From sequence record MK327941.1: a stretch of 64,000 nt of DNA, one strand, 5' to 3'. The notes under the pieces are model-generated. The model made no database searches, was not told the origin of the DNA, and saw only the letters and a program-made list of their open reading frames with translations. Every line of letters begins with the position of its first letter. Position 1 is the first letter of the stretch. Both the position numbers and the translations under genes were made by a program. This DNA is from Escherichia phage vB_EcoM_G37-3. Shown here piece by piece: positions 47,781 through 60,236 of the stretch.

Positions 47781-48179
47781 TTAAGCCAGTTGAGTGAGTT
47801 TATAAATTGTTTTAAAGCATAGAGCTTTGATATCGTCTAAAACACTCTGTAACGAGCTATCAACATCATTATAAATCTCACTAGCCATTTGCGTTAACTC
47901 TTGCAAATAGGCAATTTCGCTAATCTCCTTGCGGACGACCAACTTTGGCTGATAACGACCAGTGATCCCAATATTGGTTTCAGTGAAATTATCAACCAAT
48001 TCTTGCATTTCAAGATAGAACTCTTCTAGAGCCTTATGTTTTGCATAAGATCCAGGACCAGTTACCCCAAAATGCGCAGAATGCATATAAGTAACACTCA
48101 TCAGACATTCACCGATAAAGCGGTCAACTTTATTAGCCTTTCCCTCTTCGGACGTCTTTAGAAAATCACTGAATTTCAT
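47781..48179 (-). CDS. Dps-like (ferritin superfamily) protein
   Basis: 132 aa from ATG at 48179 behind GGAGA RBS; ferroxidase-type spacing H-x12-H-x15-D-x3-E (SAHFGVTGPGSYAKHKALEEFYLEMQELVDNFTE). Confidence 0.55.
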   Translation of the reverse strand: MKFSDFLKTSEEGKANKVDRFIGECLMSVTYMHSAHFGVTGPGSYAKHKALEEFYLEMQELVDNFTETNIGITGRYQPKLVVRKEISEIAYLQELTQMASEIYNDVDSSLQSVLDDIKALCFKTIYKLTQLA

Positions 48180-48468
48180 GTTCTCGATTCTCCATATTAT
48201 GCAACAGAACAAATTGTTGTGCGGCATATCCCCCCATAATAAAACACTGCCTAGAATCCATACATTTACTACGAGCATACATCTTCATAATATGGGCATG
48301 AAATTTCTGGCTGGTTTCAATGGAAGGAGATATTTTGTTTACATATACTATCATTGCGCCGTCGAAATAATCAGTAAAGTCACCAGTTGGATCATATTGA
48401 TCAGCACTGACACTTCCGACCGCAGTCAAGCATATTGCCGCTGTTAGAGTTTTACGAATAAATGACAT
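48166..48468 (-). CDS. secreted/periplasmic protein (100 aa) with N-terminal signal peptide
   Basis: MSFIRKTLTAAICLTAVGSVSA signal-like N-terminus; GGGGGA RBS. Confidence 0.5.
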   Translation of the reverse strand: MSFIRKTLTAAICLTAVGSVSADQYDPTGDFTDYFDGAMIVYVNKISPSIETSQKFHAHIMKMYARSKCMDSRQCFIMGGYAAQQFVLLHNMENREHEIQ

Positions 48469-48536: not shown

Positions 48537-49133
48537 TTATTTGGTAGTACCGTCAATAAAATGTTTACGGCACACAGAAACATATTTATCCTCTGCGCCG
48601 ACTTCTATTTGAGCACCATCGCGAATAACATTACCCTCTTTATCTACACGAAGGACCATTGTTGCTTTCTTGCCACAATGACAAATACCTTTCATTTCGA
48701 CCAGTTTATCAGCAAGTGCCATCAATGCCGCAGATCCTTCAAATAGATTGCCCTGAAAGTCAGTGCGAAGGCCATAGCACAGTACAGGGATATTTGCATC
48801 ATCGACAAGCGCACACAAGCCTAAAACATGCTCTTTAGTCATAAATTGGGCTTCGTCTACAAAAACTGCATCTGGACGCCATCGATCCGGTCTACGTTTA
48901 CCTAACGATTCACGATAAACCAAATCGAAAAGATCATCCGATTTAGTGAAGGTGATCGCTGGAGCACTTAGACCAATTCGGGAAACAACTTCACTTTCTG
49001 AATATCGATTATCAATCGCTGGCTTAAGAATTAATACTCGCATATCACGTTCGGTATAGTTATAAGCACTTTGTAACAGAGAAGTTGATTTGCCAGCGTT
49101 CATAGATGCATAGTAGAAATATAATTGCGCCAT
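48537..49133 (-). CDS. tk: thymidine kinase
   Basis: 198 aa; P-loop NAGKST, zinc ribbon CHCGKKA...VCRKH; colinear with T4 Tk. Confidence 0.92.
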   Translation of the reverse strand: MAQLYFYYASMNAGKSTSLLQSAYNYTERDMRVLILKPAIDNRYSESEVVSRIGLSAPAITFTKSDDLFDLVYRESLGKRRPDRWRPDAVFVDEAQFMTKEHVLGLCALVDDANIPVLCYGLRTDFQGNLFEGSAALMALADKLVEMKGICHCGKKATMVLRVDKEGNVIRDGAQIEVGAEDKYVSVCRKHFIDGTTK

Positions 49134-49661: not shown

Positions 49662-49828
49662 TTACATTTAGGGCAATGCGGTTCTTTAATATAATACCCG
49701 TCTGTCTTTGGAACACTAACAGGAGCGGTTTTTATATTGTATTCAGTGAAACAACGAAAACAAGTTACGTTTTCTACAGACTGACGTTTCACCCAATCAC
49801 CGGAATATAGATCATTTTTATTTGTCAT
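49634..49828 (-). CDS. small zinc-ribbon-like protein (64 aa)
   Basis: CFRCF...CPKCKC; internal ATG at 49828. Confidence 0.4.
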   Translation of the reverse strand: MTNKNDLYSGDWVKRQSVENVTCFRCFTEYNIKTAPVSVPKTDGYYIKEPHCPKCKCRLYWSHL

Positions 49829-50273
49829 ATTCAACCACCACAATGTTAATGTCTGGAGTAGCAATATTAATGATCTCTTCTACACATTCCCACTCAAGGC
49901 CACCGATACCGCAACCGATTTTAGGAATATAGAAAGGCTGTATAGCACCTTCAAAAACATCATTGATAGTCTCAAATCCTTTCAGGATAGCACCATATTC
50001 AGCATTTGGACCCGGTCGGAATTGGGTATAGAGATTCACCCCGCACCAGTTATAACCATTAACTTGATGCGTCCAGACACTAAACCCACCCAGCTTTTCT
50101 ACCTTACCGCGAGAAGTTTGCTTGTCAATCTCTAACGCTTGCGGGAACTCTTTCGCGATCTTTGCAGCAATACCAGCGCCCATAGTATGAAAACAATTAC
50201 AACCATGAATTAAATGACCGTTTCCTTGTTTAAACAGGGCGATGAGATCGCCCTTTACAGTATCAATAATCAT
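49818..50273 (-). CDS. macrodomain protein, TARG1/OARD1-like (putative ADP-ribosyl hydrolase)
   Basis: VKGDLIALFKQGNGHLIHGCNCFHTMGAGIAAKIAKEF matches the OARD1/TARG1 GDLF...HC.S.D..MGAGIA signature; GAGAGGTTTATATT leader. Confidence 0.7.
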   Translation of the reverse strand: MIIDTVKGDLIALFKQGNGHLIHGCNCFHTMGAGIAAKIAKEFPQALEIDKQTSRGKVEKLGGFSVWTHQVNGYNWCGVNLYTQFRPGPNAEYGAILKGFETINDVFEGAIQPFYIPKIGCGIGGLEWECVEEIINIATPDINIVVVEYDK

Positions 50274-50288
50274 AATATAAACCTCTCA

Positions 50289-50648
50289 TTAGTCACGGGA
50301 AGACAACCCAGCCATAAAACGGCTTAACAGTGTGTCGCGATAAGCAAAGCATAATTGCTTATCAGGGGCAGTATCACAAAGGTTGCGTTTTGTTTTAGCA
50401 AAGCTGGCAATACTCAGATCCCACGCTCGATTTTTTCGTTTTTCGTCTCGACCTTGTTTGTATGCTTCATCAAGTTCGAGCGCGATAAAATCACTACACA
50501 TGTTATCATCATCACAGAAAGTTTTAATGATCTTTTTGTTGATCTCAAATCCTTTGTATTCGAACTTTGGATAAGGGCGCTCATTACTAGCAAGCGCACC
50601 AGCAGAGAACATCATAGCAATCATAGCAATTATTGTCAACTTTTTCAT
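50289..50648 (-). CDS. secreted/periplasmic protein (119 aa) with signal peptide and 4 Cys
   Basis: MKKLTIIAMIAMMFSAGALA signal-like N-terminus. Confidence 0.5.
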   Translation of the reverse strand: MKKLTIIAMIAMMFSAGALASNERPYPKFEYKGFEINKKIIKTFCDDDNMCSDFIALELDEAYKQGRDEKRKNRAWDLSIASFAKTKRNLCDTAPDKQLCFAYRDTLLSRFMAGLSSRD

Positions 50649-50655
50649 ATATTCC

Positions 50656-51246
50656 TCAATAGCGTTTAGTCTTAAGAATGCCTTTACTCTTTAGATGGTT
50701 AGCCTTTTTTAGTACGTCATCAGCATAACCTAATCCGGCTTTATAGTTCCATCCAGCATTGTAAGAAGCTAGCGCGAGTCGGATATTACCGTTTCGAACA
50801 TCCAGCCAGTATGCTAACTCATCCATCGCGTAGAATGCAGAAACCTCGCGATTCATGATAAAGTTGATAGTCTGGCGATCACTCATTTTAACACCGCGCT
50901 TTGCATTTTTCGCTTTCACCGTTTTAAGGTAATTTTGAAATAATCCATAAGCATGATGATTTTTCTTTGGTGCTAAGTTTGCACCCGCGCTTGATTCTTG
51001 CCATGCGATACCCGCCAGGATGTGACCTAAACCCTTTCCGTTATAGCGAATATTCGGATGGTACTTTTTCAACTTACCGCTTTTCTCAAATTGCTCGCCG
51101 TATTGATAGGCGAAATGTAAATTATCTAGTTGGTGTGGTGTAAAGTTGTCTATCGGCGCTTTTTTGATCGGTGCGCTAGTCGATGCGTGTGTAGCACCAA
51201 CGGCTAGTGACAGACTCAATACTATCGCTTTTAGAACTTTTAACAT
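50656..51246 (-). CDS. secreted lytic transglycosylase (SLT domain)
   Basis: Signal-like N-terminus MLKVLKAIVLSLSLAVGATHA; SLT motifs GIAWQESS and AYGLFQ. Confidence 0.65.
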   Translation of the reverse strand: MLKVLKAIVLSLSLAVGATHASTSAPIKKAPIDNFTPHQLDNLHFAYQYGEQFEKSGKLKKYHPNIRYNGKGLGHILAGIAWQESSAGANLAPKKNHHAYGLFQNYLKTVKAKNAKRGVKMSDRQTINFIMNREVSAFYAMDELAYWLDVRNGNIRLALASYNAGWNYKAGLGYADDVLKKANHLKSKGILKTKRY

Positions 51247-51332
51247 TAATTTCTCCTGTTTGGCTTAACTTTCTGATTCCATAATATAGCCCTATCACCA
51301 GAAAGTCAAGCATTATTTTTAACCAATTTCCA

Positions 51333-51755
51333 TTATTGGTCTACCTTCAAAACAACCGCCGACATTTTACCCGCCAGTCGTTTTGGATTCTCTATAATCA
51401 TTCGGCAGCATAGACCGTGATATGGCTTACCCTCTTCGATTAGATCTACTGTCATCCCGATCCACATGTTACCGTCAGTAATTTCTAATCGATTCGGTCG
51501 GTCTTCCATTTTCAGGAAGTCGAAGATCTCCGGCAAACGAGTTTCTATCTTATTGAATAGTTCCATTGTCTTATGTTCATCGATATGACGATCGGTTAGA
51601 CGGTCGATCATATGCGGACTAAAGCGAATGAAAATATACTCACCATAACCATCATTCAAGCACTTTTCTTTGATCTTCGCATTGGTTTTGCGCATTTCGG
51701 TTTCGAAGAATCTACGCAGCTTACTACGGCGAACATGTACGTTAATTGTTTCCAT
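51333..51755 (-). CDS. hypothetical protein (140 aa)
   Basis: Internal ATG at 51755 behind AAGGA RBS. Confidence 0.45.
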   Translation of the reverse strand: METINVHVRRSKLRRFFETEMRKTNAKIKEKCLNDGYGEYIFIRFSPHMIDRLTDRHIDEHKTMELFNKIETRLPEIFDFLKMEDRPNRLEITDGNMWIGMTVDLIEEGKPYHGLCCRMIIENPKRLAGKMSAVVLKVDQ

Positions 51756-51759
51756 TTTA

Positions 51760-52095
51760 TTATCCTTTCTTAAACAAATTGCGAATCCAGTATACAAACG
51801 GGATTTCTTTAAACTTGAACTTGTCAATAGTTAATTCTTTAGTAGCAAGATGAATACCATAAGCATCATGTGTCACGATATGCCATTTTCTATAGTCCAA
51901 ATGTGAACAACCGTCTGGATCTAGGTTAATAAGAGTTTCTCGCTCACTAGGATTATTTTTCCACAATTTTGTAATAGGATCGCACATAATTCGACCTAGC
52001 GTACCATGAATAATCTCACAACGGTAAAGTTTTCCAGCAGTGAGATAGGCGCACCCGTCATAGTCTGTATAAACAAACACTTCTTTAACACTCAT
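51760..52095 (-). CDS. small protein, GCSHL-motif tandem paralog A
   Basis: DPDGCSHLDYRKWHIV; AAGGAGTATTAAA leader after an early promoter. Confidence 0.45.
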   Translation of the reverse strand: MSVKEVFVYTDYDGCAYLTAGKLYRCEIIHGTLGRIMCDPITKLWKNNPSERETLINLDPDGCSHLDYRKWHIVTHDAYGIHLATKELTIDKFKFKEIPFVYWIRNLFKKG

Positions 52096-55075: not shown

Positions 55076-55465
55076 TTATTTTGGATCTGGGTATTTGCTG
55101 TGTGGTAGCTGAAAATGAACACCGTCTTTAAACGATACCCAATCCCCACCCCATTCAACAGGAACACCCAATTCTCGACCAGCTTGTTTAAATGCATCCG
55201 CGATCATGCGGTAGTATTTCATGTTCCATGTATCCTTATCTTTCGGATACGCTACAACATCAACCGCGAAACCGTGAAGATGACGAGATTTCATAGTCTT
55301 AGATTTACCTTCCGCAACATATTTCTTTTGCGTTTCTAGACTACGCACACCTTCCGTAATACCAAAATCGACCAGAGTCAGTTCTAACGCACGATGAACG
55401 ACTTTTACCAGATCAGGATGTACACCAACAAGCCGATCTTTGCTTCTTTGAGATAATTTAAACAT
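55076..55465 (-). CDS. endolysin, peptidase M15 family (L-alanyl-D-glutamate peptidase type)
   Basis: 129 aa; zinc-binding motifs SRHLHGFAVDV and DGVHFQL; AGGGGGTG RBS. Confidence 0.75.
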   Translation of the reverse strand: MFKLSQRSKDRLVGVHPDLVKVVHRALELTLVDFGITEGVRSLETQKKYVAEGKSKTMKSRHLHGFAVDVVAYPKDKDTWNMKYYRMIADAFKQAGRELGVPVEWGGDWVSFKDGVHFQLPHSKYPDPK

Positions 55466-59271: not shown

Positions 59272-59490
59272 TTATTTATATCGCTTTCTCTCGCGACGTT
59301 TTTGATCTTCTTCCTTGATAGAGTTAAACGCATCAAAAAGACACATGACACTAATAATAAACATAACCGTATTTTCTACGATATCCCACGGCTTCGCATC
59401 GGTACAGATTCCCCAAACTGTAAGAAATGCAAATAGTGCAGAAGAGATCACAAGCATGATACTTGCTAAGATATAAAAAGTCATTTTCAT
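59272..59490 (-). CDS. small membrane protein (72 aa)
   Basis: Two hydrophobic segments, basic C-terminus; ATGA overlap with upstream gene. Confidence 0.45.
   Translation of the reverse strand: MKMTFYILASIMLVISSALFAFLTVWGICTDAKPWDIVENTVMFIISVMCLFDAFNSIKEEDQKRRERKRYK
59273..59280 (-). promoter_or_regulatory. T4-type late promoter TATAAATA
   Basis: Exact TATAAATA on minus strand overlapping the last codons (Y-K-stop) of the upstream gene. Confidence 0.5.
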
Positions 59491-59669
59491 GGTTTTACCT
59501 CAATTCTTCGATATTCATCACACATCCACGCAGTAAGCAAGAATCCCAACACATAAGCAACAAAATACGTTAATGCTTCTTCTGGTTTCGTGCTATGTAT
59601 CATCAGTAAACCAGCGAGAACGGTCTTAACAATTGCATTTAAAATAATTAACCACGCAAATAATTTCAT
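59487..59669 (-). CDS. small membrane protein (about 60 aa)
   Basis: Internal ATG at 59669 forms ATGA overlap with upstream stop. Confidence 0.45.
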   Translation of the reverse strand: MKLFAWLIILNAIVKTVLAGLLMIHSTKPEEALTYFVAYVLGFLLTAWMCDEYRRIEVKP

Positions 59670-59890
59670 CGTTTGCCCCATTTCGGTCGAGTCTTTTCAA
59701 ACTTATACATTCCGTAACAATCTCGAATCATCCACGTAACAAGAGCACCAGTCAACACAGACAATACACAGAAGAAGTAAAACGGTCCGGTTGCATTATC
59801 AACATGAGCAAGCCAGGTAAAGAAAACACATGCAAGGAATGTAAAGAACATCATAAAACACAAGAAAGCAAAATATTTTATGCTACTCAT
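59666..59890 (-). CDS. small membrane protein (about 74 aa)
   Basis: Track start reads TTG; internal ATG at 59890 preferred; two hydrophobic segments. Confidence 0.4.
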   Translation of the reverse strand: MSSIKYFAFLCFMMFFTFLACVFFTWLAHVDNATGPFYFFCVLSVLTGALVTWMIRDCYGMYKFEKTRPKWGKR

Positions 59891-59993
59891 AGCGCCACCA
59901 TACAACAGATCATAAGAAAACCCAACGCAATAAGAATTGCATCAAATTTAGTGAACTCAGATCCACCTATCAACATCATTCGTTCCTGTTCAT

Positions 59994-60236
59994 TCATAGA
60001 TCACAGAGCCATCTTAAAGCACCACATAAAGCGATCAAAAGACTAGGTATAAACGAGACTAAAACAAGACTACAAAAATCATCTAAGGTAACGCCGGAAT
60101 AGCTACCTACTGTAACAACACCGATCATCAGACACAGAAAGAAAACAAATGCAATCAGAAACAAAGTATTGCTAAACAGTTTAGTGATCATTAGACACCC
60201 CACGACGATCAATTTCAAAAACTTTTTTACCATCAA
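59994..60236 (-). CDS. small membrane protein (start uncertain)
   Basis: Hydrophobic ORF overlapping upstream ORF; track start reads TTG. Confidence 0.4.
   Translation of the reverse strand: MMVKKFLKLIVVGCLMITKLFSNTLFLIAFVFFLCLMIGVVTVGSYSGVTLDDFCSLVLVSFIPSLLIALCGALRWLCDL

Follow-up and report, generated by a model that had tools for sequence, protein, structure and literature searches.

A predicted early phage operon encoding a putatively exported family-1 lytic transglycosylase, Vs.1, and its possible periplasmic partner, Vs

In bacteriophage T4, the adjacent genes vs.1 and vs yield early RNA, and both proteins have been detected by mass spectrometry (published data). Similarity of vs.1 to the SLT domain was reported for six T4-like phages, citing earlier PSI-BLAST matches (Nolan et al., 2006), and Vs belongs to a family that all databases name 'ValRS modifier', for valyl-tRNA synthetase (ValRS). 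A further early T4 protein, Spackle (gp61.3), is described in published work as small, helical and signal-peptide-bearing, located in the periplasm and binding a muramidase. Here we analyse the vs.1–vs locus in a stretch of 64,000 nucleotides, the window, from Escherichia phage vB_EcoM_G37-3 (MK327941.1), an RB49-like T4-type phage (Krischvirus). We think it fairly probable that this locus is an early operon exporting a small peptidoglycan-cleaving enzyme, Vs.1, together with a disulfide-stapled periplasmic partner, Vs, the partnership being the part that we infer. A sharper proposal concerns Vs itself, namely that it is a Sec-exported periplasmic protein, lipid-anchored in some phages, which works with Vs.1 on the cell wall and is not cytoplasmic, its link to ValRS being secondary or mistaken. 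To this we assign a probability of roughly 0.35.

The interval from 50289 to 51246 contains exactly two open reading frames (ORFs), both on the minus strand, and a preliminary description of this DNA had placed two genes at just these coordinates; the gene that it counted as the second follows plus-strand order, and this 196-aa gene is the one transcribed first. It is the orthologue of vs.1 (50656..51246, minus strand) and encodes the precursor of a predicted secreted family-1 lytic transglycosylase with an SLT domain, as judged from Pfam SLT, phrog_600, identity to T4, an AlphaFold2 model and Foldseek. The vs orthologue (50289..50648, minus strand) has a 119-aa product, the precursor of a small protein that contains four Cys residues and is predicted to have four helices, assigned through PF26829 ('ValRS_modifier') and phrog_1256. 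Plus-strand ORFs in the region, for example 50355..50669, were taken to be mirror ORFs of the minus-strand genes. By megablast, the 2.1 kb around the locus is 99.9% identical to Escherichia phage vB_EcoM_G5211 and 98.9–99.4% identical to RB49, JSE, Phi1 and many others, and the near-identical genomes carry the annotations 'vs.1 conserved hypothetical protein' and 'vs valyl-tRNA synthetase modifier'. Window Vs.1 is 52% identical to T4 Vs.1 (E 2e-55) and window Vs 27% identical to T4 Vs (E 4e-8); the T4 and window proteins share the same PHROG families, phrog_600 for Vs.1 (E 4.9e-60 for the window protein) and phrog_1256 for Vs (E 1.8e-33), and a cluster 97% identical to window Vs carries PF26829. 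The gene order regB–vs.1–vs–tk.4–tk is common to both phages. The genes are thus already known, as RB49-type copies of catalogued T4 genes, and the SLT resemblance of vs.1 is published. The preliminary description overlooked these identities and the conflict with the Vs annotation. Much of the present finding re-discovers two catalogued genes, and the only surprising point is the paradox of where Vs is located.

In the model that we propose, the two genes would be transcribed early, from a sigma-70-type promoter ahead of vs.1. Vs.1, with a predicted precursor mass of 21.9 kDa, would be exported by the Sec pathway and cleaved to a basic, single-domain protein of ~19.8 kDa, which would cut host peptidoglycan to a limited extent during infection and well before lysis, in the manner of small 'specialised' transglycosylases such as EtgA; the enzyme of lysis would be the M15 peptidase encoded at 55076–55465, and not Vs.1. 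Vs would be translated right behind Vs.1, by coupling, and exported, its four-helix fold being stapled by two local disulfides, and it would serve the same periplasmic process as Vs.1, as partner or regulator. The cuts might serve to remodel the sacculus during infection, or might make room for trans-envelope lysis proteins, a purpose that we consider because the gene is close to spanin genes in two other lineages.

By sequence, Vs.1 is a member of the family-1 lytic transglycosylases with an intact predicted catalytic Glu, and enzymatic activity can be presumed on that ground. It matches Pfam SLT (PF01464, GH23) over residues 76–167 with 25.7 bits, against a gathering cut-off of 21.3 (E 9.1e-6). 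The preliminary description had singled out the SLT motifs GIAWQESS and AYGLFQ, which are indeed present, at residues 79–86 and 99–104, and had made its assignment depend on the catalytic Glu being found in an alignment; the homologues place this residue at Glu84 of the WQES motif (codon 50995..50997, minus strand), where it is intact. We aligned 15 homologues drawn from T4-like phages of Escherichia, Klebsiella, Erwinia, Salmonella, Serratia, Acinetobacter, Aeromonas, Vibrio and Cronobacter and from one Vi1-like and one FelixO1-like phage (Straboviridae, Ackermannviridae and Ounavirinae overall). E84–S85 of WQESS is invariant in all 15, as are G101 of YGxFQN, Y162-N163-x-G165 of SYNAG, and Y174; each of these is retained in at least 90% of 121 sequences, and Q104 of YGLFQN is kept at the same level. 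The invariant set coincides with the defining residues of the family-1 lytic transglycosylases, and we regard Vs.1 as a bona fide SLT-domain protein. The AlphaFold2 model of the mature protein (pLDDT 91.3, pTM 0.88) finds, as its best Foldseek matches in the PDB, lytic transglycosylases throughout (MltD, Slt, Slt70 and Cj0843; probability ~1), the top seven being MltD and Slt with probabilities of 0.99–1.00 and E from 7e-3 to 5e-2. By sequence profile, the closest solved relative is EtgA of the type III secretion system (T3SS) of enteropathogenic Escherichia coli (EPEC) (E 2.4e-4), the AIAWNES motif of which aligns with the Glu84 motif.

The Vs.1 family is widespread, a tblastn search finding it in 2,087 phage records in three families, including Ackermannviridae and Ounavirinae; some records annotate the homologue as a lysin. 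Vs.1 of the T4 and RB49 types is devoid of Cys. In lineages that lack vs (Sa157lw, Sf18, AsFcp_4 and K397; loci L009–L012), Vs.1 has conserved Cys residues close behind its signal peptide and towards its C-terminus, with an additional mid-protein C-x5-C pair in Sa157lw and K397, and these residues point to an oxidising compartment. In Klebsiella phage KPV15 (L002:1880-1902), the start of vs.1, ATGAAAAAGCG, is shifted by one base from the frame of the remaining gene, at an A run, and for this reason no more than a truncated ORF of 120 aa is annotated in the record. A sequencing error, a genuine frameshift or slippage could be responsible. The out-of-frame start was read in the KPV15 sequence only; in other KP15-like Klebsiella phages the tblastn matches start at query residue 3, which would fit the same arrangement.

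Signal peptides were called with a hand-written rule that demands a basic n-region, the absence of acidic residues up to the core, a 9-residue window with a mean Kyte–Doolittle hydropathy of at least 2.0 and a small-x-small site; the calls rest on this rule and on conservation across homologues, and are therefore predictions. The N-termini of the 196-aa and 119-aa proteins (MLKVLKAIVLSLSLAVGATHA|STS and MKKLTIIAMIAMMFSAGALA|SNE respectively) each consist of a basic n-region, a hydrophobic core of 12–14 residues and a small-x-small site, so that the signal-peptide-like beginnings noted in the preliminary description, and the prediction by which it proposed to check them, hold up by this rule. 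The predicted Sec signal peptides span residues 1–21 of Vs.1 (51184..51246, minus strand; cleavage after THA) and residues 1–20 of Vs (50589..50648, minus strand; cleavage after ALA). Both T4 orthologues also pass, the predicted mature proteins starting at Asp21 (DTSYTEIR) in Vs and at Ser19 (SEHTFSNVQLDNMR; cleavage AHS|S) in Vs.1. Since only 6 of the 109 minus-strand window ORFs of at least 70 aa pass the rule (three of the six are small multi-transmembrane proteins and one is an rI homologue), two adjacent passes are not a matter of chance.

The signals are conserved in both families. Among relatives of Vs.1, 98 of 120 pass, most of the others having a truncated start, or an N-terminus that is signal-like but falls short of the charge criteria; among Vs proteins, 38 of 39 pass, the exception being an N-terminally truncated entry, and all of 19 more distant Vs relatives have a hydrophobic N-terminus and the four Cys. 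The RB43-type Vs copy, in Dev_CS701, has the signal and the four Cys, and in seven Vs members of the CC31 clade a lipobox, L-x-G-C, replaces the A-x-A site. An RB43-type Vs.1 without a signal peptide was ruled out, because the start given in the annotation lies too far downstream, the complete ORF opening MKKIIFAASIFLCSFSGNA. From these predictions we infer that both proteins are Sec-exported and cleaved. The published SignalP table of Nolan et al. (2006) covers novel ORFs only, with vs and vs.1 outside it. T4 Vs made at full length with a His tag at its N-terminus is insoluble in the cytoplasm of E. coli; a blocked signal peptide and disulfides that cannot form would lead one to expect this, though the result is not specific.

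The form of the Vs.1 signal bears on a different view of the enzyme, as an accessory of lysis that is released like a signal-anchor-release (SAR) endolysin, or that helps spanins to thread the wall, with Vs unrelated to it. In Sf18 and AsFcp_4 the vs.1 homologue is within a few genes of spanin genes, which would suit such a role, as would the lysin annotations; but by our heuristic the 12–14-residue core followed by an A-x-A-type site (THA|S) is that of a cleaved signal peptide and not of an SAR anchor, and the gene is early and non-essential, whereas T4 lysis requires e and t. We consider this view improbable. The preliminary description had already separated the transglycosylase from an M15 endolysin, and a 129-aa protein with the motif SRHLHGFAVD of M15-type peptidases is encoded at 55076..55465 on the minus strand.

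Vs is, by every sequence criterion, predicted to be a small exported four-helix protein, with a mature mass of ~11.6 kDa in the window and, for T4, of 11.0 kDa from a precursor of 13.1 kDa; the purified ValRS factor was reportedly about 10 kDa. A search seeded with nine diverse Vs proteins gave 40 clusters, all of them PF26829, and an exhaustive hidden Markov model (HMM) search of 1.84 billion representative proteins returned 27 real Vs clusters, all of 77–134 aa, and one spurious repeat protein. Neither search found a cellular homologue, which makes the family phage-only, and the exhaustive search of the 1.84 billion representatives found no fusion of Vs to an SLT domain. The only invariant residues in the Vs alignment are the four Cys and two Gly. 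The Cys residues that the preliminary description had noticed in the 119-aa protein are C45, C51, C91 and C100, and across the family they fall into two local pairs, as C-x5/6-C and C-x8-10-C, without any further metal-ligand pattern. In the AlphaFold2 model (pLDDT 84) there are four helices, with the Cys residues at the turn between helices 1 and 2 and in the loop ahead of helix 4. Its matches in BFVD are Vs proteins only, with a TM of 0.82 to a T4-type Vs model.

Vs diverges rapidly (the T4 and RB49 types share 27% identity in Vs and 52% in Vs.1), as in an arms race, and this would be in keeping with a role for the vs.1–vs pair in superinfection exclusion, or in resistance to lysis from without, beside Imm and Spackle. 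Early expression and a predicted periplasmic location, as for Spackle, would also agree with such a role. However, no similarity to Spackle was found, the fitness cost described below is seen in single-infection competitive assays and depends on the medium, and a wall-cutting enzyme would be an odd tool for protecting the wall; we give this role little credence.

A sigma-70-type, early-promoter-like site, TTGACT-17-TATTAT (51281..51309, minus strand; 10/12 matches in a consensus scan), sits in an 86-bp gap between regB and vs.1 that has no equivalent in T4. The Shine–Dalgarno sequence of vs.1, GGAG (51253..51256, minus strand), is 6 nt ahead of the ATG. GGAG is also the RegB cleavage motif, according to a note in the T4 record, and the idea that it is a conserved RegB target here was ruled out because T4 vs.1 carries GAGG, so that the motif is not conserved. 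The Shine–Dalgarno sequence of vs, GAGGA (50653..50657, minus strand), overlaps the TGA stop of vs.1, and translation of vs is probably coupled to that of vs.1; the two T4 ORFs overlap by 8 nt, and the genes overlap or abut in T4 plus seven other phages. Within the signal-peptide codons of vs lies a near-perfect sigma-70 consensus, TTGACA-17-TATGAT, with a TG (50611..50639, minus strand; 11/12), which could act as an internal promoter of tk.4 or have arisen by chance. A signal-less Vs cannot come from it, because an in-frame start does not follow closely. A signal-less cytoplasmic isoform made from an internal start was ruled out more generally, there being no conserved internal Met and, in T4 Vs, no such Met before residue 100.

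Linkage was surveyed by a local HMM scan of the window and 18 further loci. In 11 distinct phages vs directly follows vs.1 (the window phage, T4, KPV15, Cronus, STP4-a, PS2, Henu6, CC31, Acj133 and two metagenomic phages), and in Acinetobacter phages the pair has stayed together with regB, tk.4 and tk gone from the neighbourhood. The Cronobacter phage Dev_CS701 has a full vs.1 ORF with a signal peptide (L013:2423-3070), annotated as a 77-aa fragment, and, 1.1 kb downstream of it, a Vs homologue (L013:4165-4485; E 5.8e-12) annotated as hypothetical; the two genes between them encode no signals. In seven T4-like phages, vs is directly followed by a third gene, phrog_4957, which encodes a protein of 130–143 aa with a signal peptide (L007:2737-3156, L008:2722-3141, L002:2740-3132, L003:2815-3231, L004:2818-3219, L006:2827-3258 and L018:2818-3243). 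Its N-terminus is kept, for example as ...FSVNA|WEKLPGYPE in enterobacterial members, and it makes a three-gene block of predicted secreted proteins that is absent from the window and T4. NCBIfam has no match for Vs.1, Vs or the third gene.

The T4 orthologues have been assayed for fitness in the HIDEN-SEQ transposon screen, in which vs and vs.1 were both non-essential on LB plates (HIDEN-SEQ preprint). In liquid LB the same screen gave mean insertion counts of 26.6 for vs and 22.6 for vs.1, against 127.7, 178.6, 289.6, 652 and 767 for the non-essential neighbours tk, regB, tk.4, vs.3 and tk.3, insertions in the pair thus being ~5–25 times rarer. In M9-glucose, vs was the most depleted of all T4 genes (log2 fold change −2.19, adjusted p 0), with a value of −0.87 for vs.1 (p 0.0055, adjusted 0.155; HIDEN-SEQ). 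The joint cost in LB fits a shared process.

These observations bear on whether Vs might instead be an immunity-type inhibitor of Vs.1, comparable to the periplasmic immunity proteins that accompany type VI secretion muramidase effectors, or to Spackle with the gp5 lysozyme, and keep the cell from lysing early. An enzyme gene followed by a gene for a small exported (lipo)protein, with stop and start overlapping, is the arrangement that one would look for, and in M9 the loss of vs is worse than that of vs.1; EtgA-type enzymes, too, are controlled by partners. However, the transposon data fit a pure inhibitor less well than a co-functional role, because losing the enzyme is not neutral, as it should be if Vs did nothing but restrain a harmful Vs.1. 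Set against the known muramidase inhibitors Spackle, Ivy, MliC/PliC, PliG and PliI, Vs shows no similarity of sequence or fold. We regard a purely inhibitory Vs as unlikely.

Several points weigh against the model that we propose. On the structural side, the best Foldseek match of Vs.1 has an E of only 6.6e-3 and a TM of ~0.5, with identities of 16–24%, values from which we take Vs.1 to be a divergent family member, and the Vs fold is a generic helical bundle without an informative structural neighbour. On the genetic side, many phages hold Vs.1 without Vs, no vs having been found within 2.5 kb of vs.1 in Sa157lw, Sf18, AsFcp_4, K397 or AS-gz; where two genes belong to a syntenic T4 block, their adjacency says little about a common function; and the lower insertion counts of vs.1 could be a polar effect on vs. 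Moreover, vs mutants are said to have been selected on a temperature-sensitive valS host, implying cytoplasmic action. The accepted function of T4 Vs, as given in PMC8076793, which cites Muller and Marchin (1975, 1977), is to bind and stabilise the cytoplasmic ValRS.

It may therefore be that the annotation is right, Vs being a cytoplasmic binder of ValRS that changes its properties, with an N-terminus that is not used for export or only partly so; Vs.1 would then act alone, and the adjacency of the two genes would be inherited synteny. The classical biochemistry, cited in PMC8076793, is accepted in the HIDEN-SEQ preprint and perpetuated in the family name, the M9-specific defect of vs deletion could reflect translation under amino-acid limitation, and Vs.1 is present without Vs in several phage families. 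This account nevertheless has difficulty with the retention, down to E ~1e-4, of a signal peptide or lipobox by practically all members of the family, and a lipidated form could not reach the synthetase. Nor does it explain four invariant Cys in two local pairs with no other metal-ligand pattern, or the persistence of vs beside vs.1 even where the remaining block is gone. Activity on ValRS needs a cytoplasmic location, and what is predicted family-wide is export and paired Cys. The ORF is, in addition, unnamed in the original T4 sequence record, where it is 'ORF 60.9', which means that the assignment of vs to it came later. All told, we judge a cytoplasmic Vs to be rather unlikely, yet a rival to be taken seriously. 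The preliminary description had seen in the 119-aa protein a possible periplasmic inhibitor or partner; this suggestion is compatible with the signal or lipobox, the Cys pairs, the linkage and the fitness data, and conflicts with the accepted annotation.

If Vs does work with Vs.1 in the periplasm, its fifty-year-old association with ValRS would be a contact made after cell breakage, or else the vs locus was mis-assigned to ORF 60.9, and the fitness defect of vs mutants, which varies with the medium, would be a matter of envelope physiology and not of translation. Few non-structural genes of the large virulent phages that infect Gram-negative bacteria are kept as widely as vs.1, which is expressed early, is costly to lose and would have the wall cut long before lysis. 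The name of Vs, borne in hundreds of genomes and by one Pfam family, implies a cytoplasmic job against which the sequence family argues. Resolving this conflict would either set a textbook annotation right or bring to light a protein that, unusually, has two locations, and would also explain the strongest medium-dependent T4 phenotype of a recent genome-wide screen.

The genes around the pair are regB upstream (51333..51827; Pfam REGB_T4, E 1.9e-48) and, downstream, the macro-domain gene orthologous to tk.4 (49818..50273, minus strand; Pfam Macro, E 1.3e-6, phrog_335) and thymidine kinase, tk (48537..49133). T4 tk.4 has been renamed adfM and is proposed to counter DarT2 toxicity by removing ADP-ribose from DNA (HIDEN-SEQ preprint). 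Beyond tk lies the 100-aa rI homologue (48166..48468, minus strand), of the lysis-inhibition family phrog_1246 (E 2.7e-25); its N-terminus, MSFIRKTLTAAICLTAVGSVSA|DQ, is signal-like, and no further protein in the window is marked as clearly exported by our rule. Elsewhere, at 59272..60233 on the minus strand, three consecutive small ORFs (72, 74 and 79 aa), strongly hydrophobic and apparently multi-spanning, may form a cluster of small membrane proteins.

How, then, does the locus compare with known systems? Vs.1 resembles T4 Vs.1 (ORF 61.4, UniProt P13311, Y06E_BPT4) in its position after regB, its signal peptide, its identical catalytic motifs and its lack of Cys, the 52% identity extending over the mature domain. 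The RB49-type protein differs in having a longer linker after the signal peptide (STSAPIKKAPIDN), and its gene in having a promoter-like site of its own in the 86-bp gap. Vs shares with T4 Vs (ORF 60.9, P13310) its position, signal peptide, four aligned Cys and predicted fold, whereas the identity is low, and binding to ValRS is reported for T4 alone and is at odds with the predicted location. Housekeeping transglycosylases (Slt70, the Slt and MltD of Pseudomonas aeruginosa, and Cj0843) share with Vs.1 the catalytic fold as well as the E-S, G-L-x-Q and Y-N-x-G motifs; Vs.1 is without their superhelical U and L domains, LysM or lipid anchor.

Among enzymes dedicated to other tasks, EtgA of EPEC is likewise a small, single-domain, signal-peptide-bearing family-1 enzyme with an aligned catalytic Glu motif, and is controlled by a partner protein; IpgF, IagB and VirB1 are further specialised transglycosylases of secretion systems. 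The similarity to EtgA is weak, being one of size and catalytic domain only, and Vs.1 has regB, tk.4 and tk for neighbours, where secretion genes are absent. For the role that Vs might play, the nearest functional analogue is Spackle, a comparison that we draw by analogy with its binding of a muramidase in the periplasm.

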